From the IMG/VR virus record IMGVR_UViG_3300027749_000089, positions 1 through 64,000 of that record: DNA of 64,000 bases; one strand, 5' to 3'. The first letter of the stretch is position 1. Each line of letters opens with the position of its first letter. The DNA is from a virus. The position numbers were made by a program, and so were the translations under genes. Shown piece after piece: positions 11,304 through 55,716 of this stretch. The notes below the pieces were generated by a model, which saw nothing but the letters and a program-made list of their open reading frames with translations, made no database searches and was not told the origin of the DNA.

Positions 11304-11305
11304 TA

Positions 11306-11410
11306 ATGGAACTTGATACAAATTGGGATACATCAAACAGTGAAGATGATGACTGGATTGACGATGATGAAGAAGAACTTGATACAGATTGGGATGAGGA
11401 GGAAGAATGA
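11306..11410 (+). CDS. 34-aa hyper-acidic peptide MELDTNWDTSNSEDDDWIDDDEEELDTDWDEEEE
   Basis: GAGG upstream; ATGA overlap with the next gene; 20 of 34 residues are D/E. Confidence 0.6.
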   Translation: MELDTNWDTSNSEDDDWIDDDEEELDTDWDEEEE

Positions 11411-11810: not shown

Positions 11811-11813
11811 GTT

Positions 11814-12023
11814 ATGAAAGTCGAAATTCAAAAAAAGTACAAAACGCGATGTGGCTTCAAAACTGAAGTACATCAAATCATCACATCAGTTAAGACCGAT
11901 TATCCAGTGTTAGGGCGTTATTATGACACCGATTATGCAGAATGGATTGATGAAAGATGGATGTTAGATGGGCGATGCGATGAAAGTATTGTAGATAATG
12001 ATTTAGATTTAGTTGCGCAATAA
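11814..12023 (+). CDS. Single-copy member of the ~55-aa repeat-domain family
   Basis: KKYKTRCG...YPVLG...W..DG...DLDLV. Confidence 0.75.
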   Translation: MKVEIQKKYKTRCGFKTEVHQIITSVKTDYPVLGRYYDTDYAEWIDERWMLDGRCDESIVDNDLDLVAQ

Positions 12024-12035
12024 GGGATATCTTAT

Positions 12036-12269
12036 ATGAAATCGTTAACAAACCAAGAGGTTAAGAACATGTTACACAAATTTGATTTAATATCTGCTAT
12101 TATTGGAATGATGATAGCAATAGCTGTATCGGTAGTGGTAGTTGATATGAAGTACGAAGACTATCGTCAAGTCCACCAAACTAATATTGGTGGTGTTGTA
12201 ATTGAAGGCAAGCACATTTATGAGCTTGTTGAATTAAGTGATCCAAGCCAAGGGGTAGTAAGAAAATGA
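12036..12269 (+). CDS. Small membrane protein
   Basis: One hydrophobic helix, LISAIIGMMIAIAVSVVVV. Confidence 0.65.
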   Translation: MKSLTNQEVKNMLHKFDLISAIIGMMIAIAVSVVVVDMKYEDYRQVHQTNIGGVVIEGKHIYELVELSDPSQGVVRK

Positions 12270-16804: not shown

Positions 16805-16823
16805 ACCCCGTTAAATTAACCCT
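16805..16823 (+). promoter_or_regulatory. 19-bp motif copy 2
   Basis: ACCCCGTTAAATTAACCCT upstream of the packaging genes. Confidence 0.7.
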
Positions 16824-16960
16824 AAAGCCGCTCCCCCTGAATTGTAATCCATTAGTTGTTAATCCTTAGTTATTAATTAATAATAATTAATCTAATAAAT
16901 ATATCCTTTAGGGGATCCCTGACTTTTTCCTAAAGGGCAGAGCGCTGAGACATATAGAAA

Positions 16961-16979
16961 ACCCCGTTAAATTAACCCT
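16961..16979 (+). promoter_or_regulatory. 19-bp motif copy 3
   Basis: ACCCCGTTAAATTAACCCT about 90 bp upstream of the putative terS. Confidence 0.7.
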
Positions 16980-28064: not shown

Positions 28065-29129
28065 ATGCCTTTAATTTCAAGTTTAGGTTTAATGAATGCT
28101 ATAGGATTTTGGTTTAGTAGTTTAAAATACCCACCGTCGATAGCGATGAGTTCTATGAATGCACCATACCAAGATATTTACCCTTGGGTAACAGGCGTAG
28201 GTTTTGGTGTAAGGTTTACAAATCCAACAACCACAATGGCTATAGGTGCTAAAGGGTTTTCATTTAACACTAACTCATCTGTTGTTTCGTTTGGTATGAA
28301 TGGTTCTCCTTTTATAACTACTTATAAGTGGAGTCCTTTAGGGTATGGGACAAAATATATTGACCCGTCACCTTCTTTTACTGGAGGGTCAAATGGTCCT
28401 GTATTTAACCCTGTAGGTGATACTATTGCTATAGGGCAAACAGCAACACCTTTTATTGGCGCATACCCTTGGAATGATACTACAGGTTATGGTACAAAAT
28501 ATGCTGACCCTTCTATATTGCCAGCCAGCACAGGGAACGCCATTGCTTTTTCTCCCAATGGAAATGATATATTTCTTGGGCATACTACTACCCCAAATAT
28601 GACTGCTTATGCTTGGAGTTCTGGGTTTGGTACAAAATACGCTAACCCCGCATCTGCGCTTTCCGGAAGAGGTCTTGCAGTAGCTATTAACACAGCAGAG
28701 AATGTATTAACAGTTGGTACAAATGGTACACCGTATGTTAATGCCTATATTTGGACAAGTGGAGTAGGGTTTGGAACTAAATATGCTGACCCTTCAACAT
28801 TACCTACAGGAAATATCAATTCCGCAACATTTAATCCTACAGGGACGGTAGTTTCTTACGCATCAAATGCGTCTCCATATGTAATATCGTACCCTTGGAG
28901 CGCAGGTTATGGGACAAAATATACTGACCCTAGCGTATTGCCGGTAATTAGCACAGGAGCAAGCGGTGTAAGTTTTAATTCAACAGGGTCAGATATAGCA
29001 GTAGCTTCAGATGGGACAACTGCTTTAACGGTCTATCCTTGGAGCGCAGGATATGGGACTAAATATACTGACCCAACTACACTTCCAACAGGCAGCAACG
29101 CATCCAAAGTAAGTTTTTCATCAAAGTAA
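28065..29129 (+). CDS. Second beta-propeller adhesin with ~45-aa repeats
   Basis: About 7 repeats of YPWxxG[FY]GTKY[AT][DN]PxxLP...F[NS]PxG. Confidence 0.7.
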   Translation: MPLISSLGLMNAIGFWFSSLKYPPSIAMSSMNAPYQDIYPWVTGVGFGVRFTNPTTTMAIGAKGFSFNTNSSVVSFGMNGSPFITTYKWSPLGYGTKYIDPSPSFTGGSNGPVFNPVGDTIAIGQTATPFIGAYPWNDTTGYGTKYADPSILPASTGNAIAFSPNGNDIFLGHTTTPNMTAYAWSSGFGTKYANPASALSGRGLAVAINTAENVLTVGTNGTPYVNAYIWTSGVGFGTKYADPSTLPTGNINSATFNPTGTVVSYASNASPYVISYPWSAGYGTKYTDPSVLPVISTGASGVSFNSTGSDIAVASDGTTALTVYPWSAGYGTKYTDPTTLPTGSNASKVSFSSK

Positions 29130-32118: not shown

Positions 32119-33702
32119 ATGACATACGGCCCTACTAAGACAGTTGCGGATCCTTGTCAAGCGTATGAGTATCTTAAACCTTCGTGGAATAAGGCACGTG
32201 CTGTATGCAATGGGGAACGTACTGTAAAAGAGCTGGATCAGTATATTGATCTAATTAGATTTAGCAATTTGCTGATACCCTTCTCTACAACAATGAGCCA
32301 AGCTCAATATGACTTTTATAAGTCAGAAGCTGAATTACCAGGCATTACTGCACAATTTGCTAAGATGCTTGTTGGGGGTTTATTAAGAAAAGCTCCTATA
32401 TTAACATTACCGGATGAAGTTCCTGAAGAAGCTAAGGATTGGCTTATCAATAATATCGGACGTGATGACTCTACACTAGTAGCATTTCTTGATGAATTAT
32501 TGTGGGAAGAGATCAATACATCCCGTGCATGGGTATTTGTAGACCACCCATCCGTTAATAATGTTGAAAACTTAGATAAAGAAACTAGAGATATGATTAA
32601 ACCATATCCTATTTTGCAAAAAGCTGAAACAATTGTTAACTGGGCAACAGCTGTAGATATATTTGGTAAAACAGTTTTAAAATATGTAATTGTTAAAGGT
32701 TACTCAGACGATTATACTATTAATGAATTCCATGCTATGAGAGTCCCTACGGTCTGGGTACATGAATTAAACGAAGAAGGTAATTACCAAATTCGTAAGT
32801 TCATGGGCACAACTAAAGACAATGGCGATCAAACTCTTAAAATAGGAGGTATTGGTGAGAAAGCTCAGCAATTACTACCTTCAGGCCATTTCGAGTTAAT
32901 AGAAACATTTGACAATATACTTAATAGCGGGGAACCACTAAGGCATATTCCTGCATGGCCTGTTAATGGTAGTATAGAACCTATTATGCCATTATTAATG
33001 CCTATCGTAGATAAAGAGATTAGCCTATATAATAAAATTAGTAGACGAAATCATTTACTATACGGTGCAGCTACTTATACACCTGTTATTATGTCAGATA
33101 TGCCTGATGAACAATTTGATGAAATTGTAGACGCTGGATTAGGGTCTTGGATAAGATTACGCCAAGATGATAAAGCAGATGTCTTAAAAACACCCACAGA
33201 CGCATTACAAGACATGCAAAAAGCTATTGAAGCATCTATCGATGAAATGGCTAAACTTGGCATTAGAATGCTTACAACTGAAAATGAACAATCAGGTATT
33301 GCATTAGAAATTCGTAATGCTGCTCAAACGGCACAATTAAGTGTGTTGAGTACAAAAATCTCCAGTACATTAAAGCAAGTAATATGCTTAATGGTTAATT
33401 GGAGATATGGATTAAAAATTAATGCATGTGATATTGTGTTTAATTTATCCGCAGATTTTGATCCAGTGCCTTTAGGTGCTGAGTGGTTGAATCTTGTTAC
33501 TCAATGGTATCAATCAGGGTTATTACCTAGAACTGTGTGGCTGCAGATGCTAAAGGCAAATGATATTCTTAATTCTGAATATGATGATGAAGCCGCATTA
33601 CAAGAAGTAAACGCAGATCCTCAGATCATACCTGCAGCAACTAAATATAATGATCAGTATGCAATGCAAACATCATCACAACAAGGAGTTAATAATGGCT
33701 AA
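32119..33702 (+). CDS. Portal protein
   Basis: 527 aa; position upstream of MuF, scaffold and capsid genes; sequence pattern resembles DUF4055-type siphovirus portals. Confidence 0.75.
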   Translation: MTYGPTKTVADPCQAYEYLKPSWNKARAVCNGERTVKELDQYIDLIRFSNLLIPFSTTMSQAQYDFYKSEAELPGITAQFAKMLVGGLLRKAPILTLPDEVPEEAKDWLINNIGRDDSTLVAFLDELLWEEINTSRAWVFVDHPSVNNVENLDKETRDMIKPYPILQKAETIVNWATAVDIFGKTVLKYVIVKGYSDDYTINEFHAMRVPTVWVHELNEEGNYQIRKFMGTTKDNGDQTLKIGGIGEKAQQLLPSGHFELIETFDNILNSGEPLRHIPAWPVNGSIEPIMPLLMPIVDKEISLYNKISRRNHLLYGAATYTPVIMSDMPDEQFDEIVDAGLGSWIRLRQDDKADVLKTPTDALQDMQKAIEASIDEMAKLGIRMLTTENEQSGIALEIRNAAQTAQLSVLSTKISSTLKQVICLMVNWRYGLKINACDIVFNLSADFDPVPLGAEWLNLVTQWYQSGLLPRTVWLQMLKANDILNSEYDDEAALQEVNADPQIIPAATKYNDQYAMQTSSQQGVNNG

Positions 33703-34016: not shown

Positions 34017-37000
34017 ATGATTATTAATAGTAATACACAAATTTATGACAAAACGCTAGATCGCGCAGCGATGATCCGTCTATATGAGAGAAGAGTCTCT
34101 GGTAAAGTTGATTTAGTAATTGATGGTCATGTTGTTAGACTAGATAAATTAATTAAAGATGCAGAATTATCAGGACGAGGTTTCGAAAAATTTAGAGAAG
34201 CTATTGACCAAGAATTAAGAAAGACATATAAATCAATTAATAATTCTGTTCAAAAAGATCTATCATCTCTTGTATCTGATCAACTCTCATATGCTTATCA
34301 AAAAGTAGAAGTGGCAATGGGTAAAATATGGCGTACTGAAAGACCTAAGAATAGAATCTCTGAAGAAATTGTACTTAAAAACCCATTAAGTGAAAACGGT
34401 ACAATGGAGCAGGGATGGTCAGGTATTGCCAAGAATGAAAAAATTAGATTAGAAGCAGTTATACGCAAAGGTATAGCTGACGGAAAAAGCGTAGATGAAA
34501 TAGCTCTACAAATACGTTCAGGAAACGTACATAATATAACTCGCATGCAGTCGAAAGGTCTGGTAATAACAGCCATTACAGCTGTATCCTCTCAGGCTGA
34601 TCATGCTATTTATAAAGCAAATGAAAAAGCGTTACAAGGATGGCAATATGTTGCTGTCCTTGACGCACGAACAACTCCGCTATGTGCTCATAGAGATGGT
34701 GAAATTTATCCGATAAGCGATACAATACATCTTCCACCGGCACACTGGCATTGCAGATCTACTACAGTTCCTGTATTTAAATCATGGAGCGATATAGCAG
34801 ATCTGGAAAGTGTAGCACAAGTAAGACGTAGGAATATTGAGAACTTAACTGATGCTCAAAAAGCTTTTTATGACGGTAACACACCTCTTAGAGAGTCATA
34901 CAACGATTGGCTAAAGCGGCAACCACAAGATGTACAATTAAGGCATCTTGGTGATTATAAAAAAGTTAACATGTTTCAATCAGGACAACTTACTGTTGAT
35001 CAATTTACTAACCCAGAAGGTAACACTATTGGAATTAAAGAATTGAGACGTATGACTGATCCTACATATACACTTCCTAATGATACACAGAAATTTGCTA
35101 ATGCAAAAGCTAAATTAGATGCGATGCAATTACCTATTATGACACCAGATGATTTAATAGGAGATCCTAAATTAATTCAAACATTAAAAGATTATTATTT
35201 ATTACAGGCAGGTGAATTAGATGGTACCTTATCTCTTACCAATTATCGAGGCGCACTTATCCATACAAAGAAAGCTGCCAAGACAAGAGTGCTTAACAGT
35301 CTTCCAACGGAGGACCAACTCATCTTTAACCCCGTTACCGGTAGGTACGAAGATACAAGATTATATCAACCTAATCCATCCGTACTCAATAATAACTTAA
35401 GACTTGCAAAACAAAGTGATGTTTTGAAACCAAAAGATAAAGAGTTTATTAATTCATTTAATACTGCGCTTAGTGAAAAGATGAGTGTTAATGAGCGTGC
35501 CGTTGTGGTAGATAACCTTCGTATTCTATTTACCAGATTTAGAAATAATGGTGAACAGTGGAATAACTTTAAAGCTGTGGTACAGGGTCAAATTAAATTT
35601 GATGTAATGAATGTTTCTGATGCTATTGAAACTCAGATACGTAGTGATATCAACGTATTGAAGAAACTCAAACAAGATAATTATATTGATCCAGTATTAG
35701 GTCCAACTCAATTACAAGACTTGCATGATAATTTCATTGATAATATTCGTGCTAAGAATAACTGGGAAGATACTATATCTCCTAAGATAGCTAGAGAGTT
35801 ACGTAATACATTTGATTACAAGATACCCTTAGTATTAAAAAGAATGCCTAATGGTAAAGAGCGTTTAACTGAATCTGCATTACAACAATTTTATCTAAAG
35901 TTTGCGCACAGATTAAGCATGGCAGATATGCCTGATAGAGATCAATTTGCTATTGCATTAGGAAGAGATTTATACAATCTTGCTAATATGAACGGCACTA
36001 GACGTAAATGGTACGAAACAGGTATGAAGCTTCTTGAAGCTAAAAATGTTAGTAACTTCTTTGAAGTTGAAACATATGGTGTTCAAAAGCGAAGAATGAA
36101 AAGTAGACTTAGTGGTTCCTTGTTTGGCCCTTATTATGACACTCTGTCATATAATATAAGAGTTGTAGACCCTCGAATACAAGAATATTCACAGCTCACA
36201 CGGAAAGTGGACGTTGGCCTACGTGTTGGCGTAACAACAGAAAAGAACAAACTGGTTTTTCGCGAGGGATATAAAACTTATTTTATTGACAGAGGTCTCC
36301 TAGGTTTAGAAGATACAAGAATACCTATTACGTCAACAAATAGTTTTTCAGATTTTCCTGAAGAACTTGTTGATAAAAATATGGCAGATGCGTTAAATTG
36401 GGCATCTAAGTCTAAGTATAAAATTGATAATGACTTTTACGACTTTACACAAAAATTATTATACTTTGAAGATGATCGAGGTAACGCTAAAAAGTATAAT
36501 GATCTAAATGAATACAAACACTATATTTCATCTCGTGGTGATGCATATGAACGATTTAAATCTATGGATTGGCTTAGAAATAATGATTACGCTTTCAGTA
36601 ATCATGCTTTTGTCGATCATCGGGCTAGGATCTATGATCGTGGCCTTATTAGTCCGCAATCGGGAGAATCATTTAGACCTTTCTTAAATACTGAAGTAGA
36701 AAAAGTTCTTGGCGAAGATGGATATAGAAACTTCAGAGATCAGATAGGTGCCTTTATGGGTGGTCTAAATGATGTATTTGAAGGTAGATATAATTCATTG
36801 TCATTTACTGGACGCCAAAAGATTGCTGATAAATTGTGGCCAGATATGGTAGACCTTGGTAATAAAATGTTAAGAGCCAAACCTGCAGATTTACGTGCTA
36901 TTCTGGAATCAGATACGGTGCAATTAATTGAAGGTGAGGAACTTGGTAAGTTCATGAGATTTGCCATGGAAGCTGCTAAGATAGATAATCATCTTAAAGC

Positions 37001-38654
37001 CGGTGGCTCTATGAATGCATACAAAACAGCCTTAGCCTTGGAACAAGATGCATCGTCTTCAGGTGCTCAGATTATTGCATTAACTACAAAGAATAAGCAA
37101 TTAGCTTCATTATCTAATGTTATACCAACAAATCAGAAACGCAGACTATATGATGAAATTGCTGCTGCAACATTTAATGATCCTCGGTTTAAGGTGCTTA
37201 ACGAAAGATTATGCCTCAATGAAAAAGATTTACGTAAAGCTGCAAAAGCTCAAAATATGGTTACGTTTTATGGTGCTGGTGAGAGAACGGGAATTTTAAA
37301 TGTAGAAGGAAAGTTAGCTAAAGTACTTGGGAAGGACTCTTCTACACTAGTAGTAAAAGCTAGTGATCGTGATAAAGTATTAAATGAAATTTCAGCTCGT
37401 GCGGCTAGATATGAAAAGTTTGATCCAGAGACAACTGCAGAGCTTAAACAGCTTAGAGAAAACGTTAAAGATATATTTAACAAAGGCTTAGATCCTGGTG
37501 ATGACATTATGGAACAGTTATATTTCCTGGATCCTGCTACTAAAGACTTAGTAGAAAAAATGACACACACCTATGATATGGTGGTTACACCTAAAGACTT
37601 CCAAGCTATTGCTAAATTAATGTCTGAACATTTAGGTGAGCAGGTTCCTATTCTTAAAGATTTTACTAAATTCTTTGGTAGACTAGCTGAAGATTATTTA
37701 ACTAATGCTAAGCCTTCACAAGCTGCATTAGATTGGAGATCTATAGGCGCTACTAGTATATTAGGTGCCCGTAAAAAAGGTTATGTATTACCTGATAGAG
37801 TTAGTGAAATATTAGGATTGAAGCCTGGAGAAGCTTTGTCTGAAAAGTTTTTAAAGAGATTTGATGGTTGGAAACCTGACGGAACCTTGGCTGATCTTAT
37901 TTATGGTGTAAAAGGCCCAAAAGATCGTAGAACTGGATTTAAAGTATTTAAAGTAGAGCCTATAGAAAAATTAAATATCTCTAAAGGTTTTGAAATATTT
38001 TATGCTAATAAGCTGCCCAAGTCTTGGACTAATGTCCCATGGGTTAATTTTGATGGAAAAGTTATTGAGCAAAACTTTACCCAGTCATTTGAAGAAAGAT
38101 TAGTCTATAAAGACAAAGATGGTAATTGGGTTAATAATTTGGTTCAGGTGCAGCAGAAAACAGAAGCCACTTGGTGGGAACAGGTAGTTAATGCAGACGG
38201 TAAAATAAATGACATTGCAGACGCAACTAAAGCACGAACAGCATATGCAGTTAACGGCAATCACTCAAATGATGCCACGTTGGTTAAGAATTTCCATATC
38301 TGGGGACGAGACAATAAGATTGCCACAAGCACCATTCACGATGCGTTTTTCGCCAATGCAGCCGATATGCTGGAGGCCCGGAAGGGTATAAGAAAACTAT
38401 ATGCTAACGTACTAGATAAGAACCCTGTCAAGGTTACTTTAGATGAAATGTTAGCTAGAGGTTTTCCAAAAGAATTATATGATAAATATTTAGAAGAAGC
38501 TATTGACAAAGGATTAATTCCAGTTGCTGGTAAATCAGTTGTCGGTGGTAAAACATTAACAGAAGCTGACATCTTAACAAAGAAAGATGTAATGAGCGAT
38601 ATCCCCGATCCTACTAAATTTGAGGATGATTGGGGTTTTTACGGCATAGGCTGA
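34017..38654 (+). CDS. MuF (SPP1 gp7-like minor head protein) fused to a T7-family single-subunit RNA polymerase
   Basis: N-terminal WQYVAVLDARTTPLCAHRDG...PPAHWHCRST (MuF). C-terminal DHRARIY (DxxGR-like), QDASSSGAQ (motif A), RKAAKAQNMVTFYG (motif B), NGNHSND, TIHDAF (motif C). Confidence 0.9.
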   Translation: MIINSNTQIYDKTLDRAAMIRLYERRVSGKVDLVIDGHVVRLDKLIKDAELSGRGFEKFREAIDQELRKTYKSINNSVQKDLSSLVSDQLSYAYQKVEVAMGKIWRTERPKNRISEEIVLKNPLSENGTMEQGWSGIAKNEKIRLEAVIRKGIADGKSVDEIALQIRSGNVHNITRMQSKGLVITAITAVSSQADHAIYKANEKALQGWQYVAVLDARTTPLCAHRDGEIYPISDTIHLPPAHWHCRSTTVPVFKSWSDIADLESVAQVRRRNIENLTDAQKAFYDGNTPLRESYNDWLKRQPQDVQLRHLGDYKKVNMFQSGQLTVDQFTNPEGNTIGIKELRRMTDPTYTLPNDTQKFANAKAKLDAMQLPIMTPDDLIGDPKLIQTLKDYYLLQAGELDGTLSLTNYRGALIHTKKAAKTRVLNSLPTEDQLIFNPVTGRYEDTRLYQPNPSVLNNNLRLAKQSDVLKPKDKEFINSFNTALSEKMSVNERAVVVDNLRILFTRFRNNGEQWNNFKAVVQGQIKFDVMNVSDAIETQIRSDINVLKKLKQDNYIDPVLGPTQLQDLHDNFIDNIRAKNNWEDTISPKIARELRNTFDYKIPLVLKRMPNGKERLTESALQQFYLKFAHRLSMADMPDRDQFAIALGRDLYNLANMNGTRRKWYETGMKLLEAKNVSNFFEVETYGVQKRRMKSRLSGSLFGPYYDTLSYNIRVVDPRIQEYSQLTRKVDVGLRVGVTTEKNKLVFREGYKTYFIDRGLLGLEDTRIPITSTNSFSDFPEELVDKNMADALNWASKSKYKIDNDFYDFTQKLLYFEDDRGNAKKYNDLNEYKHYISSRGDAYERFKSMDWLRNNDYAFSNHAFVDHRARIYDRGLISPQSGESFRPFLNTEVEKVLGEDGYRNFRDQIGAFMGGLNDVFEGRYNSLSFTGRQKIADKLWPDMVDLGNKMLRAKPADLRAILESDTVQLIEGEELGKFMRFAMEAAKIDNHLKAGGSMNAYKTALALEQDASSSGAQIIALTTKNKQLASLSNVIPTNQKRRLYDEIAAATFNDPRFKVLNERLCLNEKDLRKAAKAQNMVTFYGAGERTGILNVEGKLAKVLGKDSSTLVVKASDRDKVLNEISARAARYEKFDPETTAELKQLRENVKDIFNKGLDPGDDIMEQLYFLDPATKDLVEKMTHTYDMVVTPKDFQAIAKLMSEHLGEQVPILKDFTKFFGRLAEDYLTNAKPSQAALDWRSIGATSILGARKKGYVLPDRVSEILGLKPGEALSEKFLKRFDGWKPDGTLADLIYGVKGPKDRRTGFKVFKVEPIEKLNISKGFEIFYANKLPKSWTNVPWVNFDGKVIEQNFTQSFEERLVYKDKDGNWVNNLVQVQQKTEATWWEQVVNADGKINDIADATKARTAYAVNGNHSNDATLVKNFHIWGRDNKIATSTIHDAFFANAADMLEARKGIRKLYANVLDKNPVKVTLDEMLARGFPKELYDKYLEEAIDKGLIPVAGKSVVGGKTLTEADILTKKDVMSDIPDPTKFEDDWGFYGIG

Positions 38655-38657
38655 AAT

Positions 38658-38792
38658 ATGAACGCAGAAATTAAAAGATGTACATGTCAACATCCTAATC
38701 AGGATAAACTCCATGGCAATGGAATGAGAGTGATGAATCCAGATCAGAAGAAAGGGTTCACATGCACTGTATGTGGAGCAAAACACAAATGA
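38658..38792 (+). CDS. 44-aa Zn-ribbon-like micro-protein
   Basis: MNAEIKRCTCQHPNQDKLHGNGMRVMNPDQKKGFTCTVCGAKHK (CxC...CxxC); starts 3 nt after the RNAP stop. Confidence 0.7.
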   Translation: MNAEIKRCTCQHPNQDKLHGNGMRVMNPDQKKGFTCTVCGAKHK

Positions 38793-39010
38793 GATTTAGT
38801 CACGCATTAGATTTAATAATTGCAAACCACAAACTAGCACGTACAGGTTGGAACGGTAAAAACATGTATGTCAGTATTGTTAGAAATTTTGGTTCAGTTG
38901 AGCCATTTTTCATATTAACACAACCTACTAAGACGAACACATGGGTTCCTTCAATGTCTGATTTATTATCGGATGATTGGGTTATCTTTCCAGAGACCCC
39001 GTTAAATTAA
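38789..39010 (+). CDS. DUF2829-family protein (Tad2-like candidate anti-defence signal sponge)
   Basis: MRFSHAL...ARTGWNGKNMYV...WVPSMSDLLSDDW signature. Confidence 0.8.
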   Translation: MRFSHALDLIIANHKLARTGWNGKNMYVSIVRNFGSVEPFFILTQPTKTNTWVPSMSDLLSDDWVIFPETPLN

Positions 39011-39014
39011 CCCT
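38996..39014 (+). promoter_or_regulatory. 19-bp motif copy 4
   Basis: ACCCCGTTAAATTAACCCT overlapping the DUF2829 stop codon. Confidence 0.7.
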
Positions 39015-39109
39015 TAAGCGGTCCCCCCTTTAATGAGTCTATTAGTTAATTAGTCCTTTATTTATTCTTTAATAAAATAATAATAAATAAATATATTAAT
39101 GATTAATAG

Positions 39110-39128
39110 ACCCCGTTAAATTAACCCT
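39110..39128 (+). promoter_or_regulatory. 19-bp motif copy 5
   Basis: ACCCCGTTAAATTAACCCT about 80 bp upstream of the scaffold/capsid operon. Confidence 0.7.
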
Positions 39129-39206
39129 AAATACTAAAAACAAATATCCTATAGGGTGAATTGTATTCACTTTATAACACTGAGTTGTACTCAAAGGAAA
39201 CATAAA

Positions 39207-39845
39207 ATGACCGAAAATGTCGAAGAAAAAGAAACTGATAATATTACTCCGGATACTACTGCTACCAATTCTCCTGTGGATGATATGGACACGAAGATCC
39301 AAGAAGCTCTTAAACCAATCAAAGAAAAACTCGATAAAGCGTACAGCGAAAGAGACAATGCGTTAAAGAAAGCTGCTGAGTATGAACAAAAAGAGAAAGA
39401 AGCTGAAATAAAAAGACTTCAAGAAGAAGGAAAACATAAAGAAGTTTATGAACTTCAGTTAGCGGAAGCCAATGCTAAATTGGAAACGATAACAAAACGT
39501 AACATAGAACTCGCTAGAGATTTAGAAGTAAAATCTGCTCTTAGTGGATATACGTTTAGAAGTGATAAAGCTGCGGATATGGCATATATGGATGTGGCAT
39601 CGCAACTTGTACAAAATGAAAATGGAGTATGGGTGCATAAATCAGGAACTGATCTAAGAACCTTTATAAAACAATTTTCTGAAGACGATAACAATTCTTT
39701 CTTATTCAAACCAAAAGTTTCGACAGGGGCCGGTCAGACAAGTTCTAGCAGTACTTCTCAAGATACTTCGAATAAATCTTTATTCCAGTTATCACAAGAT
39801 GAAGTGCTTAAACGTGCTGCTGAAGGATCACTTCGCAGGAAATAA
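39207..39845 (+). CDS. Capsid scaffolding protein
   Basis: AAGGA RBS; acidic coiled-coil, F-L-F-K...G-x-G tail; directly upstream of the major capsid gene. Confidence 0.8.
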   Translation: MTENVEEKETDNITPDTTATNSPVDDMDTKIQEALKPIKEKLDKAYSERDNALKKAAEYEQKEKEAEIKRLQEEGKHKEVYELQLAEANAKLETITKRNIELARDLEVKSALSGYTFRSDKAADMAYMDVASQLVQNENGVWVHKSGTDLRTFIKQFSEDDNNSFLFKPKVSTGAGQTSSSSTSQDTSNKSLFQLSQDEVLKRAAEGSLRRK

Positions 39846-39867
39846 ATACTTTAAGGAAAAATGAAAA

Positions 39868-41106
39868 ATGGGCGCTACAACTTTAAGCCTTACTAATGGG
39901 CCATCGGGATTATCTACTAATTATGTATTACAAGAAGCTATTGGCGCATACAGCGACGAAGCTTACACTAATGCTAGAAAATTATCAGGTACAGGAATTA
40001 CTTCTTCTAACCCACAAATTGATACCAGCACAGAAACCTTTATTGGCCAAATGCGTTGGATGAAACCGTTAAACCCAACTATTAACGTTGCGTCATTAAC
40101 TGATTCTACAGATGGTACTAAAACCAGTTACGACACTGACTACAGCACATATATTAAAACTGTGCGTACACACGGTGCCGAAAAAGTTAACATGCAACAA
40201 ATTGTTACACAACAAGACGGTCTAGCTAAAATTGGTCGTGACTTCGGTGAAACTCGTGCTCAAGACGAACACAATGCTATTCTTTCTGTATTGAAAGGTG
40301 TTGCTGTAGCTGAAGCATTAAACGGTGCTGCTACAGGCTCTGGTTCAACTGGTCTTGGTGGTCAAACATTCTCTAACGATCCTACAGATAAGAAATATGG
40401 TTTCTACGTAGATCTTGGTTCTGAGAAAATCGTTACTGCTAATGGTGTTGCTCCTGGTGCCGTTGTTAACTATGCATATCAAGGTGCTTCACGTGCTGAA
40501 GGTTTCTTAAATGCATTCGGCATGGCATTTAAAGATTATGAACCAGAATGGGCATACTTAGTTGTATCTCCTGAAACTATGGCTTCATTCCGTTCAGCTA
40601 ATTTTGTTGATGAAACAACTATTGTTGATGGTAACATTAATTTTAACACAATCTTCAATGGTAAATTCCGTTTAATCACTACACGTGCTGCTCAGTCGCT
40701 TTCTGCTGCTGAATTAACAATGTTACGTACTGGTGCTGGCGTTGGTGCTACAACTACTTTTGCTGCTAATAAGAAAACTTCATTCATTGTATTGCCAGGT
40801 GCAATTGCAATGGAACAGTTGATGGTTCCTGATTCAGTTGAAGTTTACCGTGACGCTAACAAATACAAAGGTGGCGGTACAACTTCTATTTGGAATCGTT
40901 GGGGTTATGTATTATCTCCTGCTGGTTACGATTGGAATGGTGCTAAAACTGCATTCCCATCTGACGCTGATTACATGGGTGTTGTTGAAAGCGGTACTTC
41001 TAAAGCTCTTACAGCTACAACTACTATTGCTAGCGCACGTGGTACATGGACACGTAAAACACAATCAGCATTATCATTAGGTATCTTACCTGTATTCCAT
41101 TCTTAA
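39868..41106 (+). CDS. Major capsid protein
   Basis: 412 aa, strong codon bias, position after the scaffold gene. Confidence 0.8.
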   Translation: MGATTLSLTNGPSGLSTNYVLQEAIGAYSDEAYTNARKLSGTGITSSNPQIDTSTETFIGQMRWMKPLNPTINVASLTDSTDGTKTSYDTDYSTYIKTVRTHGAEKVNMQQIVTQQDGLAKIGRDFGETRAQDEHNAILSVLKGVAVAEALNGAATGSGSTGLGGQTFSNDPTDKKYGFYVDLGSEKIVTANGVAPGAVVNYAYQGASRAEGFLNAFGMAFKDYEPEWAYLVVSPETMASFRSANFVDETTIVDGNINFNTIFNGKFRLITTRAAQSLSAAELTMLRTGAGVGATTTFAANKKTSFIVLPGAIAMEQLMVPDSVEVYRDANKYKGGGTTSIWNRWGYVLSPAGYDWNGAKTAFPSDADYMGVVESGTSKALTATTTIASARGTWTRKTQSALSLGILPVFHS

Positions 41107-44333: not shown

Positions 44334-47300
44334 ATGTCAGGCATTGTCATTGATGTCGAAGCTAAGATTGATAAAGCGCAGCGTGATCTAAATACATTAA
44401 ATAATTCAGTTAAAAATATTGAAAAAAGTACTAGCTCGGTGGCTAATGCCTTTGATGGTCTTATAGCTTCAGTCGGTAGTTTAACAGCGTTAGGTAGTTC
44501 GTTATATTTTATGCAAGATATAGCCACTTCTTATCGCAATATGGAAAACCAAATAAAATTGGTTACAAATAGTACAGAGGCTTTCACTAAAACGCAAGAA
44601 GAGCTCTACAACATAACCAAAGAAACACATAGCGAATTGAAAAATAGTGTTTCTATTTACTCAACATTAGGCAAGTCGCTAAGCCAAGCTGGAATTTCAT
44701 CTGAAAGATTAGTCAGTGCTACTAAAACTATACAACAGTCTATGAGTATTTCAGGTGCATCTGCTGAGTCGGCTAATGCAGCTATTATGCAGTTAGGCCA
44801 AGGGCTGTCTTCAGGTGCATTACGTGGTGAAGAATTAAACTCAGTGATGGAACAAGCTCCACGATTAGCACAAGCGTTGGCTGACGAATTACACGCCAGC
44901 TTAGGGGAAATGCGTACTCTTGCTGCAGAAGGCAAGCTCACTACCAATGTTGTATTTAAAGCATTAGAAAACCAAGCAGGAAAAATTAATGATCAATTTT
45001 CTAAATTAAAACCTACATTAGCGCAAGGCACACAAGCTTTGAGTCAGAGCCTTAAAAATTATTTTTATGAATTTGACAAAGGATTAGGCTTAACAGATCT
45101 AATGGGTGTGAGAAATGCCAAACTTGCTGATAAAATTGATGAAGCTGCTAAAAAAGCCTTTATATTAGGTAATAATATCGCTATAGTTGCATTAAAGTAT
45201 AAGAATATTTTTGATTATGCACAGAGACCTCTTAGATTACAAGCTGAAATAAATTTTGAAAAATTTAAAATAAGCTTAGAGCAATTAGGCATAACAGCCG
45301 CATTTGAGCATCTTGGAAAAAATCTTGAAGTTTTATTAAATAATATTTTCAATGGGCTACTTGATAGATTTCAAGCACGTAATAAGGGGATAGGCAGTAT
45401 AATTAGTGCATCCGTTTTAGATACTTTTCATGATGCAATGAATTTACAAGCATTAGAAATGGATAGTATCCTTAATAAGCTAACTAGAAGTATTTTTAAT
45501 TTTGTTAGAAATATTAATGCTACCGTCACTGAGTTGAAGTTAAAACCTCTTTTATTTATTGATGACCTTTTTAATAATATCCTTCGAGGTTCACAAAATT
45601 TAGATTTTGCATTAACAGCTATAACTCGATTCGGTAAAGATGTTATTCATGTATTCTTTAATATTTACGATAAAGTGATTGGAAATTCGTGGTGGACAGA
45701 CACTATTAATACAGTTATAAATACGTCTGATTCATTATGGTCTAATGCTAAAAATGGCTTAACTAAGTTTTCAAAAGGCGTCCAAAATATTTTTGAAGGT
45801 TTATATAATGATGTAGTAGACATTGTTGACAGCTTTGGTAGTTTTGATATTAAAACAATAAAAATAGCTATAGTAGTAAGCCGTGTTGAAGAGTTTGGAA
45901 GAGATATTTATACAAGTTTAGTTTCAGGCATTACTAAATTTAGTAAAGAATCGCCTATGCTATTTCAATCAATAGCAGCAGGGTTAGGCGCAATTCTAGT
46001 TAGTATGATGTTTCCTGTATCACGTATCACCCTTGCATTAGAAGCTGCTTTAACAACTTCTGCTTTAAAATCAGGTGCCATTTTTAGTGAATCAATAGGA
46101 AAAGATTTTTTAGATGAAAGTTTATTTTTATCAATAGGTAAGAAACTTGGAGAACTTACTGGCAAGCTAGTTGATAACTTTATAAAACAAATACCAAACT
46201 TGATATCAGCTCTCTTAGGTGTAATAAGCGGGTTTACACGAGGTTTTTTAGAACAAATACCAATAATTGGATTAGCTTTTAAAGCATTATTTAAAATTGG
46301 TGATTTAACTGAAACCAGCGGGCCATTAGGCCTAGTTGGGGGTTTGTTACTAGGGACTATGGGCCTGAAACTTCTTTCCTCTATAGGTATATTTAGCGAC
46401 CAAATTGAAGGTATTTTTGTAGTTGCTAGAAGAGTAGCTATGTTCTTTGCCGGGCGCGGTGGCCTAATGTCGATGTTGCTCTTTGGAGGTAATAGAGCAT
46501 TCTTTACAATTGGTTGGGCAGGTCTTATATTAGATCAGATGGGCGCATTTGACAGTCTTTTTGAAAATTCAGGGCTAATGCACTTAGCCATAAAAGGTGG
46601 ATTGCTTGCAATGGCTTTGTTTGGAATTAATGGTCTTCGCGCTATTCGTGCTGAAATCATTATTCCAATATTACAAAGTTTTCGTGCGTTAATAACAAGC
46701 TTTAGTTGGGGCACATCATTACTTTCTGGCCTAGAAGCGGCTATTGCGGGGAGTGGCAGAGGGTTATTAATGCGATTTGTTGGAATGTTAGCAGCTATGC
46801 GTCGAGGTATGACTGATAGACTATTTGCTATGACATCTGGACAATCTATTATTGAAGCATTAATTTTTGGATCAGCTGGGCCAATAGGTCTTATTGGAAG
46901 TTGGTATTCAAGTATTGTAGGTTTCTTTTCGCGTATAGGCGGCTTAAGTATATTTAACGGAATTGGACCGGCACTTGCTTCAGTTAGCGCATCTATGGCA
47001 ACATTACGCGCATCTGCAGGCGCTACAGGAATCCTCAGTAGATTTCTATTTGGCCCAGCAGGTATTGCAGTCGTATTAGCCGCTATTAGTATGTTTGTAA
47101 GCTCTGTTAATGCAGCTGAAATTGAACTTGGTGGTGATAAACGACAAAAGAAATCCTGGTTTGAAGAATTAAAAGATTCTATATCTTCATTCAATATTTC
47201 TAAATTATTCACTGGAAATCCTTTTCAACCATTAGTTGATTTTTGGAATGATATAGATATTGTAAACACCATATCACAGAATGTTGGGACAGTGATAAGC

Positions 47301-50300
47301 ACTACAACTGCTTCTGTAGGCTTCTTCCTATTTGTATTTAAATCGCAAGTAGCTCAGCTGCTTTCTGTACTATTTTCAGCTGTCAATTTGTCAAGGGTAG
47401 CTATAGCAACTTCACAAGCCGTATCTCTTATTGGAATTGCTGCTTCACAAATTAAAGGTTTTATATATTCCATTGGCGCTGCAATTACCAGTCTTAATTA
47501 TGTAGCAATGTTTTCTTCTTTATCAGGAGGACTAGCTACATTTATTCTTAGCATGCGAGGTATTCTTCTTAGCGGCATGGGAGCTATGGCAGGCGCAATG
47601 GCTGCAAATCTTGTAGGCGGCTCTGATTGGGCAGCTTTAGGTGCAATGATCGGTGCGATGATTGGCTTGAAAATTTCAGAAGCAATTGGAAGAGCAATAT
47701 TAACACAAGCCGGCTTAATAATTGCAAGAGCAATTGCAGTAGTTATAGGTGGCTTGATTGCACTTGCTATTCCTATAGGTCTTATAGGTCTTTGGTTGTT
47801 TGGCGATAAACAGGATTTGGGCAAAGATTTAGATGATGTAATTGACAAAGTTAAAGAACTGATGGGCATGGGTTCGCCCACTAAGAATCTAACTACAGGC
47901 TTATCTAAAGAAGCGCAAGCAACAGCAGAAAAAATCGGTTTAAGCATTACGTATGATTTAAAAAAGATAAATCCTGATTTATTAAGTAAAACTGATAAAG
48001 ATCGATTAGATGAGTCTATTAAGAGTTTAGATGAAGTTTTAGTAAATGGTGGAAAAGATCTTGAAGCGGGGATAGCATTAAGTGGTTCTCAACTTGGTGA
48101 AATACAATTAAAACAATTACGTACATCCAACATTGCTAATAAAGATGCTGCCAAAACAACATTTGAATTAAAGGATTTTGCTGACAGCGTATTAAGCGCT
48201 AATACAAGTAAGCCGCAAGATCGTTTTGATGTTGGGTTAAATTGGATTAAACAAGCTAGTTTAGATCTTAAATATAATATTGAGCATGCAATCCTTTCGG
48301 CTAAGGTGAAGTATCCTGTGTTCAAATCAGAGGATCCACTTAAAAATAGATTAATGCTAAATAATCTAGAAGAATCTAGAAAATATAAGTATACTGCAGG
48401 CGCTAAAGAACTGACAGATAGAGAGTTTTATATGGGGCGAGGCATTCAAAGCCTTGCATTGAATGGACCAGAAGGCCCAAAAATTAAAGAGCAGATGACT
48501 CTTGAAGCAGCAAAGTATACTGAAATTATTAAAAAGTTAAATGACGAGTCTTCAGCTTATACTGCAGCTGACCGTACAATGATGGAAGAGTATAGAAATT
48601 CATCAATGACACGTATGGAAACTTTATTAAAACAACAACAATACTTTCAAAAAGAATCTGCATCTATTGCTAAGTTTAATGCAGAATTAGGAAATCTTGC
48701 AAGTAACTTTAATACTAAAAACTTTGAATTCAAATTAGATACAAATAAATTATTTGCGCAAGATCAAGAAGCATACGATAGACTATTTTCTTTGAGCAAA
48801 GAAGCTAAGAAGCTGGGTGAAGAGTTAGAGAAAACTTCTGATATAAGCAAACGTAATTCTATTATATTGCGTATTGAAGAAATTAGAACAGTCACTACAC
48901 GTCAAGTAGAACAAGCAAATAACCTTAGAAACAGAGCACAATTTGAATTAAAATCGATTGGTGAAAAAGCTGGTGTTAAAGTCCCTAGCGCGTCTGAATA
49001 CTTGCCGACCACTGCTGCAGAAGAATTTAGAACTCGTCTGCAATCCTTACAAGCTAGACGTGAAAATATTAAGACCAAGCCTGCTGCTCCAGCAATGTAT
49101 GCCTTGGGAGATATTCCTAAAGATAGTAAGGAATACACTGCATACATAGACGATTTCAATAAACGTAATGAAGCGTTTAAGAAAGCGGAAATAAATTTTA
49201 AAACAGAATCTGATGCAATTAATACCGAAAGTATTAAAATTCAAAATGATATTATTGAATCTTTAAAGACAAATTCAGATACTAAAGCACAATTCTTAAA
49301 AGATGCTGCTGAATCAGTTAATATAGACTTATTGCAATCTATTTCAGATTTCGGACTAGAGCAGGCTACTGATGCTATTATAAAGATTGCTGCTAAATCA
49401 AATGAAGTATCCGATGCATTAGCTAATAAAGATTGGGGACTGGCGGCTAAGCTTAATGAAGAAATGAAATCAATGAAGTTAAGTATTGATCATATCGATC
49501 CTAAACCTCTTGAAGATCTTTTATCCGTTCTTAATGTTACGGCTTCTAAGCGTGATATTTTAGGCTTTAGTAAAACATCTTTTGATCTATTCAAAGAAGC
49601 TGGAAAGAGCGTTCAAGAATTTGATAGAGCAATTAAAGCAGGTCAAGATACATTATCTCAAGATAGTCTTAATGATTTATTGTCAAAAAGGTTAATGGCT
49701 ACTGAAGCGGCATTTAATGAAATGCTTAAGTATGCTAATACTACTGGCGAAAAAATGTCTCAATCATTTGCTGATATCGGTGTACAAGATGTCGGAGGTT
49801 TAAGTAATGTTTCAGAAGGCGCTTTAAAACGCTTATTAAGTTTACAAACTATGTTGGCTAAATTAAAGCATGATGCTGAAAAACCAATGAATTTATCTGA
49901 GTATAAGGAATATCTTAAAAACCTTAATTTAGTAAATGCTGCATTAATAAAAGCTAAGAGTGTTTTGGCAACGTTTAGTGAAAAAGCTAATACATTTAGA
50001 GAAATATTTAAAGTTGATTTAACAGATTTAGATATTGCGTCAATGGCTGATGGATTAGGCATGCGTCTTGTTGAAGTTGCACAAACTGCAAAAGCAGCAT
50101 TAGAATCAGCAATGAAATCAGATGGTGGAATATTTAGTGATTCTACAAAACAATTAGCGGAAAATTTAAAAGATATTTCTGATATTGGTCCATATATAAA
50201 GTTTTTTAATGATTTTAAAAACAATACTGAAGACTCTTTAACAGACGGCATTAAAACATCATTTGAAAAAGTAAAAGCTGCATTACCTAATTTTGGATTG

Positions 50301-55078: not shown

Positions 55079-55716
55079 TGATCTCATTCACCCCTAATAT
55101 AACAAAAGCATTAAATAGTGATGCAATCGAGTTTTTCTCATTAGTGCGAATAGAAAGAACCGCAAATGAAGTAGACCCAATACCTATCAATTTATATGCA
55201 ACTACTAGCCATTACAATGATATTCAATTATTAGTAAATGGAAGTCCTTCAAGTAAATATAACTATATTGCTGATGGTACATTATATGCAGTAGATCCTC
55301 CTCAAAACTCTTCAGTAGTTGACAGAGAGCAATATAAGATTGCATTTGCAGACCCTGACTTTTCAAAGCGAGGTGCAACAGAAGATAGCCTTATAGGTAG
55401 AGTTGTTGAGTGTAGATTAGGCTTTGTTGATTCAGACCCTAGTTCTCCTACTCACGGTAAACCTTTTTTAAATATAGACGACACTATTGTAGTGTACAGA
55501 GGAAGAGTAGATGGCGTCTCAGCTAGTATAAAGGTGGGAAGCTTAGGTGAAAGCATATTACAAATAACAGGCTCAAGCCCAATGCGTAATTTAGACATGA
55601 AAAAGCCATTCTTCTTGAGCCGTGAAAAGACTAAACAAAGGGAACCTCTTGATACTTCATGCGATCAAATTTATGAAGGTTCTACCGGTATCATTGTCAA
55701 GTGGGGGAGAAAATAA
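55078..55716 (+). CDS. Tail tip / baseplate hub-associated protein
   Basis: Position; YRGRVDG, and D.SCD...KWGR at the C-terminus. Confidence 0.55.
   Translation: MISFTPNITKALNSDAIEFFSLVRIERTANEVDPIPINLYATTSHYNDIQLLVNGSPSSKYNYIADGTLYAVDPPQNSSVVDREQYKIAFADPDFSKRGATEDSLIGRVVECRLGFVDSDPSSPTHGKPFLNIDDTIVVYRGRVDGVSASIKVGSLGESILQITGSSPMRNLDMKKPFFLSREKTKQREPLDTSCDQIYEGSTGIIVKWGRK

Follow-up and report, generated by a model that had tools for sequence, protein, structure and literature searches.

A MuF minor head protein fused to a T7-type RNA polymerase, a probable capsid-carried transcription enzyme of long-tailed phages

What does a T7-type RNA polymerase do when it forms one polypeptide with a minor head protein? 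In T7-like phages, the host RNA polymerase transcribes the early genes, including the phage polymerase gene. Phage N4 carries gp50, a single-subunit, T7-related polymerase that is made late, enclosed in the capsid, ejected and directed to a few early promoters; a second, T7-like polymerase, which takes over in the next stage, is among the N4 early gene products (PMC4496689, PMC5512222). In phage P23-45, a virion RNA polymerase fused to the tape measure protein transcribes pre-early genes, among them that of a non-virion RNA polymerase (10.1101/2022.12.01.518664). We examined whether the fusion described here could belong to a relay of this kind.

The window, by which we mean the whole stretch of DNA analysed, comprises the first 64,000 nucleotides of IMG/VR record IMGVR_UViG_3300027749_000089. 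The complete genome, of about 75 kb (74.8 kb) and with a G+C content of about 35%, is that of a siphovirus-like phage from lake water, which appears to be lytic; its tape measure protein of 3370 residues indicates an extremely long tail. The assembly is circular and does not fix the position of the early region relative to the DNA end that enters first. The fusion gene and its neighbours are as follows.

32119..33702, plus strand: portal gene (DUF4055-type), directly upstream of the fusion gene
34017..38654, plus strand: MuF-RNA polymerase fusion gene, 1545 residues plus stop codon
34017..35066, plus strand: MuF/SPP1 gp7-like head morphogenesis region, residues 1–350
34452..34766, plus strand: Pfam Phage_Mu_F core, residues 146–250
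35070..35090, plus strand: flexible linker, residues 352–358
35091..35723, plus strand: conserved extra helical domain, residues 359–569
35724..38651, plus strand: single-subunit T7-type RNA polymerase module, residues 570–1545
36615..36629, plus strand: DHRAR, residues 867–871 (T7 DWRGR, 421–425)
37047..37064, plus strand: motif A, DASSSG, residues 1011–1016
37233..37274, plus strand: motif B, R-x3-K-x7-YG, residues 1073–1086 (T7 R627, K631, Y639, G640)
37725..38027, plus strand: insertion of ~100 residues relative to T7, residues 1237–1337
38262..38348, plus strand: HSND, residues 1416–1419 (T7 H784/D787), and motif C, IHDAF, residues 1440–1444 (T7 H811/D812)
39156..41106, plus strand: scaffold gene (39156–39845) and major capsid gene (39868–41106), directly downstream of the fusion gene

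The fusion is encoded by one uninterrupted open reading frame with an ATG start. Pfam identified Phage_Mu_F (PF04233) in its N-terminal part (E 3.9e-14, 53.8 bits against a cut-off of 29.6) and RNA_pol (PF00940) in its C-terminal part (E 2.4e-10, 40.3 bits against a cut-off of 22), and PHROGs assigned head morphogenesis (phrog_241) to residues 3–362 (E 2.3e-62) and RNA polymerase (phrog_414) to residues 864–1092 (E 2.2e-22). An AF2 model of the N-terminal part (pLDDT 86.5) had 106 structural matches in BFVD at E<=0.001, to MuF, head-morphogenesis and minor capsid proteins, with the MuF-ART of Xanthomonas phage Xp12 among the neighbours. Since no other gene of the genome matches PF04233, the role of MuF in head assembly must rest on the fusion polypeptide. 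Its gene is the last of a terminase-portal-MuF late operon, lying between the portal gene (phrog_145, E 1.2e-54; homologs with PF13264) and the scaffold and major capsid genes (phrog_206 and phrog_247), and the synteny is identical in the cultured roseophage DSS3_VP1.

The C-terminal part was modelled confidently and compactly by AF2 (residues 346–1545, pLDDT 86.4, pTM 0.83). Foldseek returned T7 RNA polymerase, POLRMT and Rpo41 as its best matches (E about 1e-17). VIA-align superimposed model residues 225–1200 on T7 RNA polymerase residues 36–883 (Z 29.5, rmsd 4.2 A across 535 residues), against Z 19.3 for the N4 mini-vRNAP, with the T7 alignment starting at residue ~565–570 of the fusion, equivalent to T7 residue ~33–36. 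Despite its divergence (17% identity to T7 in the structural alignment), the module was aligned to T7/T3 RNA polymerase by hhalign at 99.6% probability (E 3e-24), which equated D1011 with the catalytic T7 D537, K1077 with K631, Y1085 with Y639, H1416 with H784, D1442 with D812 and R871 with R425. Fold, motif order and catalytic residues thus agree with the T7/T3 enzymes (PF00940). Across 27 diverse homologs sharing 17–68% identity, the catalytic and functional residues are invariant (R871, D1011, D1419 and D1442) or nearly so (K1077 and Y1085), and the fused polymerase, with an intact catalytic set under selection, is apparently active. T7 RNA polymerase differs in being a free, unpackaged early protein of 883 residues, made via host RNA polymerase and ending in ...FAFA, whereas the fused module ends in ...YGIG and carries the insertion, which has no T7 residues opposite it in the hhalign output, just before a specificity-loop-like beta-hairpin that is present in the model. 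Within the insertion, residues 1309–1331 (model residues 964–986) have pLDDT below 50.

Between the two halves lie the linker, the sole segment of the N-terminal model with pLDDT below 50 and a candidate hinge or processing site, and a helical domain with high pLDDT in both models, conserved family-wide and without counterpart in T7 RNA polymerase; a search for a specific fold match to this domain found none. The initial annotation had described a single 1545-residue reading frame with MuF at residues ~1–260, and indeed the translation is stop-free, both domains exceed their Pfam cut-offs and the MuF region extends to residue 350. The MuF motifs that it quoted (LDARTTPLC at 215–223 and PPAHWHCRST at 240–249) and its five polymerase motifs lie, in that order, exactly where it had placed them. 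Its unrecognized stretch, ~330–780, shrinks from both sides to the helical domain.

How general is this architecture? Databases hold more than 400 proteins of about 1540 residues with both PF04233 and PF00940, among them the fusions of the cultured roseophages DSS3_VP1 and DSS3_PM1, and MuF was found in 25 of the 27 diverse family members. In a search of 1.84 billion representatives, the polymerase part began at residue ~790–900 in every full-length relative, and no free-standing form of the fused polymerase was found. The polymerase of EBPR siphovirus 1 is interrupted exactly after V1082, inside motif B, by a group I intron that carries an HNH gene, and another genome (G004) carries a homing intron at about the same place; homing introns there are typical of essential, conserved genes. 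Judged from these sequences, the fusion seems to be old and obligatory. That it might instead be a mis-assembled chimera, or a decaying pseudogene with an inactive polymerase, has a negligible chance of being right: we found no point in its favor, mis-assembly is excluded by the many independent proteins of the same architecture, cultured phages among them, and decay is at odds with catalytic residues invariant down to 17% identity and with the confident, compact model.

The initial annotation dealt with this one polymerase and grouped it with the 19-bp motifs. Both points need correction. The genome encodes a second, ordinary T7-like RNA polymerase in its early region, which is closer to T7 RNA polymerase than the fused module is (30% identity, PF00940 E 9.5e-65 against 2.4e-10) and ends in ...YAFA. 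A polymerase of this kind, 739 residues long, accompanies the fusion in the early region of 7/7 complete or near-complete genomes checked: G000, DSS3_VP1 and 5/5 others. A motif survey yielded two classes of candidate promoter.

12016..12039, plus strand: the sole class II motif within the window, CGCAATAAGGGATATCTTATATGA
12658, 16806 and 16962: further class I (19-bp) copies
38997..39128, plus strand: pair of class I motifs (CCCCGTTAAATTAACCCT; 38997 and 39111) immediately behind the fusion gene and before the scaffold/capsid operon, conserved in relatives
Genome 65985: class I-like variant that precedes the first class II site by 68 nt and is conserved there in relatives
Genome 66053–66076 and 66591–66614, outside the window: the two main class II copies, upstream of the second polymerase gene
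Genome 68275–70494, outside the window: second RNA polymerase gene, 739 residues
Genome 73219, outside the window: further class I copy

The class I motif fronts the replication (middle) and late operons and is probably the promoter of the second, stand-alone polymerase, a more plausible pairing than that with the fusion. The class II motif, by contrast, is a contiguous element of ~25 nt with the core GTATCTTATATGA (also written G[T/C]ATCT-W4-TGA). In 43 related loci, it matched 71 times upstream and once downstream of the second polymerase gene on the plus strand, and 0 times upstream and once downstream on the minus strand, a strand-specific distribution limited to the part of the early region that precedes this gene. 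The motif does not vary among genomes whose free polymerases share only 50–98% identity, and DSS3_VP1 keeps 10 of its 13 core bases in the same location, directly behind the tail-gene terminator. In 31 of 58 unique cases, the last three bases of the motif are exactly where a hairpin begins, compared with 12–13% in controls, which fits a transcript start there. For the MuF-fused enzyme, the class II motif is a better promoter candidate than the 19-bp motif.

Taken together, these data lead us to favor, as the probable account, a two-polymerase relay like those of N4 and P23-45, started by a capsid-loaded, ejected fusion. The virion polymerase would consist of the phage's only MuF/SPP1 gp7-type minor head protein and a T7-type RNA polymerase joined via the extra helical domain. 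Its gene lies in the late operon, so the fusion would be made late; late synthesis and fusion to the only MuF suggest that it is loaded into capsids. As SPP1 gp7 leads one to expect, the MuF part would anchor it at the portal or procapsid, with a few copies becoming enclosed alongside the DNA. In the next infection, the fusion would leave the capsid with the DNA and use two or three long, invariant class II promoters, located where the early region begins, to transcribe the pre-early genes. These transcripts would include the gene of the free 739-residue polymerase, which would then read the class I promoters that drive the replication and late operons, among them the one encoding the fusion itself. 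A 175-kDa protein would have to unfold to pass the extremely long tail, which counts against delivery.

There is a small but real chance that the fusion is not delivered and acts only in the producing cell, for example as a procapsid-bound transcriptase that works late or is coupled to packaging, or that the polymerase is cut from MuF at the low-confidence linker and stays behind; host RNA polymerase would then read the early genes from the class II sites, as it does in T7-like phages. The packaging of the fusion is something that we infer, and the class II core of DSS3_VP1 contains a perfect TATAAT, which could be a host sigma-70 –10 element. The class II motif is nonetheless long, contiguous and invariant; it does not look like a sigma-70 promoter, lacking a conserved –35 at a suitable distance, a sigma-70 scan did not call it, and the early region showed no enrichment of sigma-70-like sites (13 against 13.4 +/- 3.7 expected). 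The motif is also shared by phages whose hosts must be unrelated, given how far the G+C content here, about 35%, departs from that of Ruegeria. Furthermore, a separate late polymerase would lack a third promoter class, class I fronting replication and late operons alike, and it is hard to explain, if the halves act apart, why practically every full-length relative keeps the fusion and why no free form turned up among 1.84 billion representatives.

Delivery could also be combined with swapped roles, the incoming fusion reading class I, entering the early region via the copy at 65985 and, later on, boosting the late operon that encodes it, while the free polymerase reads class II. We regard this as unlikely. 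The conserved copy just upstream of the first class II site would suit it, and the place of the fusion gene in a class I-driven operon would give positive feedback; moreover, both motif classes are invariant within the freshwater clade, so covariation assigns neither and the pairing of motifs with polymerases rests on analogy. However, the boundary copy differs from those in front of operons: it is a variant, most relatives having G at one of its positions, and a C-run follows it. The swap would leave the free polymerase only two or three promoters, all before its own gene. This enzyme is needed only once made, and its gene lies downstream of the class II sites. In N4 and P23-45, the early-encoded polymerase is the one that transcribes later genes, and a few early promoters belong to the virion enzyme.

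T7 and N4 are established cases of genome entry driven by transcription, and T7-type and mitochondrial RNA polymerases can prime replication. A main role outside gene expression is nevertheless very improbable here. Entry through so long a tail may be slow, but pulling the genome requires promoter-dependent transcription of the entering DNA and is compatible with the relay; primer synthesis is already covered by the Toprim-DnaB primase-helicase of the same phage.

The proposed relay shares its two-polymerase layout with N4 (Schitoviridae), and the differences lie in the carrier and the enzyme. N4 gp50, of about 3500 residues, belongs to a podovirus, has its own N-terminal ejection and C-terminal encapsidation regions (with a metallopeptidase domain) and recognizes DNA hairpins as promoters. 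It lacks MuF, in line with the initial remark that N4 does not package its polymerase as a MuF fusion. The present carrier is MuF, within 1545 residues of a long-tailed phage, and its polymerase is structurally nearer to T7. N4-like virion polymerases were found in N4-like phages only in a 2017 survey (PMC5512222). P23-45 is likewise a siphovirus with a virion structural protein fused to an RNA polymerase, but there the tail tape measure protein carries an unrelated two-barrel enzyme, whereas here a head protein carries a T7-type one. MuF itself is already known to carry enzymatic cargo (PMC5512222), with the Xp12 MuF-ART as a further case, and SPP1 gp7 binds the portal at 1–2 copies per capsid (quoted in PMC5576092). 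Described MuF-effector fusions have the same plan, an N-terminal MuF encoded after the portal gene and a variable C-terminal enzyme thought to travel with the DNA (PMC5576092, PMC5512222), but their cargoes, such as polymorphic toxins and ADP-ribosyltransferases, are toxins or host-modifying enzymes of mostly temperate phages, not transcription enzymes. The word 'polymerase' is absent from the text of the MuF toxin survey (PMC5576092), the 2021 description of DSS3_VP1 leaves RNA polymerase unmentioned, and neither the two systematic surveys, of MuF and of packaged effectors, nor our full-text literature searches yielded a description of the MuF-RNA polymerase fusion.

Thus, a design found in hundreds of database proteins, for which we found no describing paper, probably represents a capsid-carried transcription enzyme that switches on the early genes. 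If the relay holds, these phages would not need the host RNA polymerase for early expression.

The single open reading frame that the initial annotation had placed at 34017-38654 (+) proved to be real and free of interruption, encoding a 1545-amino-acid product (MuF-RNAP, hereafter the fusion), and the motif positions reported with it were all exact on re-examination. In the proposed Pfam comparison, Phage_Mu_F (PF04233) matched residues 146-250, towards the N-terminus, with E 3.9e-14, scoring 53.8 bits where the curated cut-off is 29.6. RNA_pol (PF00940) matched the C-terminal portion with E 2.4e-10 and likewise passed its curated threshold (40.3 bits; cut-off 22). Among PHROGs families, the head-morphogenesis family phrog_241 spans residues 3-362 (E 2.3e-62) and an RNA polymerase family spans residues 864-1092. 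The MuF signatures LD-x-RT-x2-C and PP-x-H-x-CRS are retained across the family, and the fusion is the sole PF04233 match in the genome. Polymerase motifs T/DxxGR, A, B and C are present in order; a profile-profile alignment with T7/T3 RNAP (probability 99.6%, E 3e-24) matched the DHRAR sequence with T7 DWRGR and equated D1011, K1077, Y1085, H1416 and D1442 with T7 D537, K631, Y639, H784 and D812, respectively. Megablast of the gene against 50,697 phage records gave no match, nor did phmmer of the protein against PDB sequences at E≤1. By sequence match and gene position, the fusion can be assigned to the PF04233 family, for which portal binding and low copy number would be expected by analogy. 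Sequence and predicted fold together place it among the PF00940 single-subunit RNAPs, and RNA synthesis that is promoter-specific and primer-independent is predicted.

We then considered the predicted structure. An AlphaFold2 model of residues 346-1545, built from 54 sequences, had a mean pLDDT of 86.4 and a pTM of 0.83, and its top Foldseek matches in the PDB were T7 RNAP and the human and yeast mitochondrial RNAPs (E ~1e-17). VIA-align superposed 535 residues on T7 RNAP (8dh5_E) with Z 29.5 and an rmsd of 4.2 Å (model 225-1200 against T7 36-883); yeast mitochondrial RNAP gave Z 27.1, and chains of N4 mini-vRNAP gave Z ≤19.3. With the T7 complex 3e3j_B, up to 653 residues aligned, which exceeds the 558 residues of the T7 C-terminal domain, so that part of the T7 N-terminal domain also superposes. 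The model therefore predicts the right-hand T7 RNAP fold, including part of the N-terminal domain. The second model covered residues 1-575 (pLDDT 86.5) and matched MuF, head-morphogenesis and minor-capsid proteins in BFVD, among them the orthologue in the cultured roseophage DSS3_VP1 (YP_010105321.1; E 1.7e-33) and the Xp12 MuF-ADP-ribosyltransferase. It is without a solved counterpart, as a Foldseek search of the PDB gave nothing at E≤0.001, and a wide VIA-align search returned generic helical bundles only, with the best Z of 11.0 lying in the noise range for helical models; matches to a cyanophage pre-ejectosome chain (Z 7.7) and to the P68 portal/tail (Z 6.6) were set aside as not interpretable. 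Prediction of a complex between the portal protein (527 aa) and MuF residues 1-360, both with alignments, scored 0.00, which counts neither for nor against binding. Structure models and matches together therefore give an anatomy in four parts (MuF, linker, helical domain and polymerase):

Residues 1-350: MuF, from models and family matches
Residues 352-358: linker, the sole low-confidence stretch of the 1-575 model
Residues 359-569: conserved extra helical domain
Residues 570-1545: full T7-type polymerase
Within the polymerase, ahead of the specificity-loop hairpin: insertion of ~100 aa

The record is 74,798 bp long and rated complete in IMG/VR, the window being its first 64 kb; overlapping ends show the assembly to be circular. 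Every gene is on the same strand, and the G+C content is ~35%. Around the fusion, the upstream order is:

32119-33702: portal gene
Next: 117-aa ORF
34017: start of the fusion gene (+)

Downstream follow scaffold, major capsid, head-tail adaptor, major tail and a 3370-aa tape measure, which implies a very long tail. The order portal, fusion, scaffold/capsid is identical in DSS3_VP1. To judge from the sequence, the fusion gene sits in a siphovirus-type morphogenesis module. Elsewhere there are genes for a T7-style replisome (family A DNA polymerase, Toprim-DnaB primase-helicase and ligase) and for a ribonucleotide reductase, and related DNA was found in lake-water metagenomes. Several further features were observed in this region. 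A 44-aa ORF with two CxxC pairs, zinc-ribbon-like (38658-38792), precedes an 82-aa ORF (38762-39010, +) that adjoins the fusion on its 3′ side and carries a Tad2-like (Thoeris anti-defence 2) domain (PF11195, E 1.6e-17). Towards the 3′ end of the tape measure gene (44334-54446, +) lie three internal repeats of ~90 nt, and the gene at 55701-63905 (+) encodes a distal tail or fibre protein of 2734 aa. Six tandem repeats of ~141-144 nt (28326-29074, +), lying in the ORF at 28065-29129, encode the unit W-x-x-G-(Y/F)-G-T-K-Y-x-D-P in a 354-aa protein with no family match.

The fusion is widespread. With the polymerase part as the query, at least 434 proteins were found, nearly all of them ~1540 aa long, with both Pfam domains, and encoded on 65-90 kb contigs. 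A search of 1.84 billion cluster representatives gave 146 matches; the polymerase begins at residue ~790-900 in every full-length one, and none was a free-standing form of the fused polymerase. Across 27 diverse full-length members (17-68% identity), R871, D1011, D1419 and D1442 show no variation and K1077 and Y1085 almost none, with MuF detected in 25 and RNA_pol in 23. Deposited phage genomes carrying the fusion are EBPR siphovirus 1 and the roseophages DSS3_VP1 and DSS3_PM1, the latter two being cultured members of the Naomviridae; there it is annotated solely as a head protein ('head morphogenesis' in DSS3_VP1). In the EBPR siphovirus 1 gene (JF412302), a group I intron that contains an HNH gene interrupts motif B at a point immediately following the V1082 position (11179-12040; Rfam RF00028, E 1.4e-8, below the gathering score). 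In another related genome (G004:C1:15311-17934), the gene is interrupted at about the same motif B site and again near HSND. Genes that are essential and strongly conserved are the usual hosts of insertions like these, and further ones may be present in database proteins of 1626-1775 aa that are only partly covered.

The genome encodes, beyond the window, a second, stand-alone T7-like RNAP of 739 aa (genome 68275-70494; PF00940 E 9.5e-65), with 30% identity to T7 RNAP and the C-terminus ...YAFA. It shares only 23% identity with the fused polymerase around the motifs, and the two occur together in DSS3_VP1 and in all five further genomes tested. In relatives L019-L021, L023 and L026-L029, the free polymerase gene spans ~2970 nt as against 2217 nt; the difference of ~750 nt comes from an intervening sequence that is absent here, possibly an intron, intein or homing-endonuclease gene.

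Two repeated motifs are candidate promoters. Class I, CCCCGTTAAATTAACCCT, is the 19-bp motif of the initial annotation and has six exact copies and one variant in the genome, fronting the gene at 12798 and the terminase-portal-MuF, scaffold/capsid and SSB/DNA polymerase operons; it is kept in relatives, and the DSS3_VP1 equivalent differs in sequence. Its likeness to the T3 promoter (AATTAACCCT) was rejected as a guide to specificity, because the specificity-loop residues of the second polymerase differ from those of T3/T7. Contigs from RNA libraries are much deeper past the copy at genome 73219, before the SSB operon (324-542 against 8-15, ~30-fold; genome 73175-74482, or 13175-14482 of L003, a stretch outside the window), a comparison made at contig level only in two lake metatranscriptome runs, with the DNA run flat. 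This is a weak hint that class I at 73219 is an active promoter in situ, and the depth step is no evidence on the fusion.

Class I comes in two flavours (16806-16979, 38997-39128 and genome 65985-66020): some copies precede AT-rich leaders and genes; in the other flavour, (A/T)AAGC-G-TCCCCCC and a conserved element of ~50 nt come next, and another copy of the promoter lies 26-156 nt downstream. The copy at 38997 is overlapped by the 3′ end of the Tad2-like ORF. Immediately ahead of the early region, beyond the window, is a non-coding island of ~250 nt (genome 65760-66050; L003 5760-6050) that is conserved, rich in G+C and contains GTGTGG repeats. At its end stands a class I-like copy, after which come a C-run and a second AATTAACCC; relatives share the blocks of the island, which may serve as an origin, as a regulatory RNA or as the pac site or terminus of the genome. 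DSS3_VP1 (NC_055826, 2245-59199) has ~12 coding-strand copies of ATAGGGTGCGTTAAAG(A)GGGGGA before middle and late operons, including a tandem pair ahead of the portal gene, with a CGTTAAA sub-motif in common with class I; these look like promoters of its free T7-like polymerase.

Class II is a ~25-nt motif with the consensus GCGGAAAA-N4-5-GTATCTTATATGA, and its copies lie as follows:

Genome 66053 and 66591: class II copies at the start of the early region
Genome 12016: single further copy

Across 43 related loci (second-polymerase identity 25-98%), the class II core has 71 coding-strand copies within 8 kb upstream of the second polymerase gene and one downstream of it, against 0 and 1, respectively, on the other strand. 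The DSS3_VP1 core, GCATCTATAATGA, is identical to class II at 10 of 13 positions and lies in the equivalent place, directly after the tape-measure terminator. The pattern was not found in the EBPR siphovirus 1 record, which is a 54-kb partial and may lack the early region. In 31 of 58 unique cases, the terminal TGA is exactly where a hairpin of varying sequence starts; the corresponding figures are 12-13% for controls and 3-28% when the register is shifted. Because the windows share phylogenetic descent, the p-value of the register test overstates their independence. Folding energy over the 35 nt past the sites did not differ from that of random windows (p = 0.25). We regard class II as a candidate promoter of the fused polymerase.

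The early region contains the free polymerase gene, and so its first transcription cannot be the work of that enzyme: it must fall to the host enzyme or to one that accompanies the DNA. That the host transcribes the early region, with nothing delivered, is unlikely in our judgment; at class II, no -35 element is conserved at the distance proper to sigma-70, and a scan for sigma-70 promoters neither called the motif nor showed enrichment in the early region. Class II is long, contiguous, invariant, strand-specific and not sigma-70-like, and therefore points to a phage single-subunit enzyme, for which the MuF-fused polymerase is the only candidate. The promoter assignments might be swapped between the two polymerases, and on this pairing a covariation test is uninformative because class I and class II are both invariant across G000-G003 (this genome and three relatives); we hold a swap to be quite improbable. 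A polymerase serving mainly in a non-expression role seems very improbable, and an artefact is scarcely credible, the same fusion being present in cultured phages.

We consider it probable that capsid-loaded MuF-RNAP is ejected and starts a relay of two polymerases. It would be produced from the late operon, and its MuF part, the only one the genome has, would dock the polymerase at the portal or into the capsid, as the fusion itself and its gene position suggest. Once delivered, it would read the early region from class II, including the free polymerase gene. More tentatively, and at somewhat less than an even chance, this freshwater and marine long-tailed lineage, which includes the cultured Naomviridae, may be independent of the host RNAP: portal-docked MuF-RNAP would exit with the leading DNA, start transcription from a ~25-nt promoter of its own (core G[T/C]ATCT-W4-TGA) and perhaps draw the genome in as it transcribes.

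The relay logic proposed here is that of N4 (PMC4496689) and of P23-45, where the virion polymerase is fused to the tape measure and transcribes a gene that encodes a non-virion polymerase. N4 gp50 (Schitoviridae) has ~3500 aa, with a central polymerase between an N-terminal ejection region and a C-terminal encapsidation region containing a metallopeptidase, whereas the fusion has 1545 aa, MuF at its N-terminus and nothing past the polymerase, which is nearer to T7 (Z 29.5) than to N4 mini-vRNAP (Z ≤19.3). In the proposed relay the fusion would be gp50-like in its working, with encapsidation and ejection suggested by the MuF fusion and gene position, yet it does not belong to the gp50 family. 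To our knowledge, packaged RNAPs come from a few unrelated solutions only: N4 gp50, the multisubunit enzymes of phiKZ/AR9-type jumbo phages, the two-barrel enzyme of crAss-like phages and the P23-45 tape-measure fusion. The MuF-family protein of SPP1 binds the portal, with 1-2 copies enclosed per capsid, and the survey of MuF toxins nowhere mentions a polymerase (PMC5576092). A 2017 survey of packaged 'polyvalent' proteins found N4-like virion RNAPs restricted to N4-like phages (PMC5512222), and the paper describing DSS3_VP1 contains no mention of an RNA polymerase (PMC8323127). Full-text searches of the open-access literature found no earlier description of a MuF-RNAP fusion. The virion RNAP relay as a kind and MuF as a cargo carrier are known; their combination is new.

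If this is true, transcriptase packaging would have evolved independently a fourth time, here for the first time with a head-assembly protein as the carrier of a T7-type enzyme, and a new orthogonal polymerase-promoter pair would come with it. MuF-RNAP and class II form a ready polymerase-promoter hypothesis, directly testable since Ruegeria pomeroyi DSS-3 is a culture host of DSS3_VP1. Such a polymerase, compact, self-contained and served by a long, specific promoter, could also be of use for orthogonal expression. The fusion, carried by a phage group that is abundant in lakes and oceans and mostly uncultured, would employ the generic MuF cargo system of tailed-phage heads for a T7-type enzyme, and the range of MuF cargo would grow from toxins and host modifiers to the start-up of the phage's own transcription.
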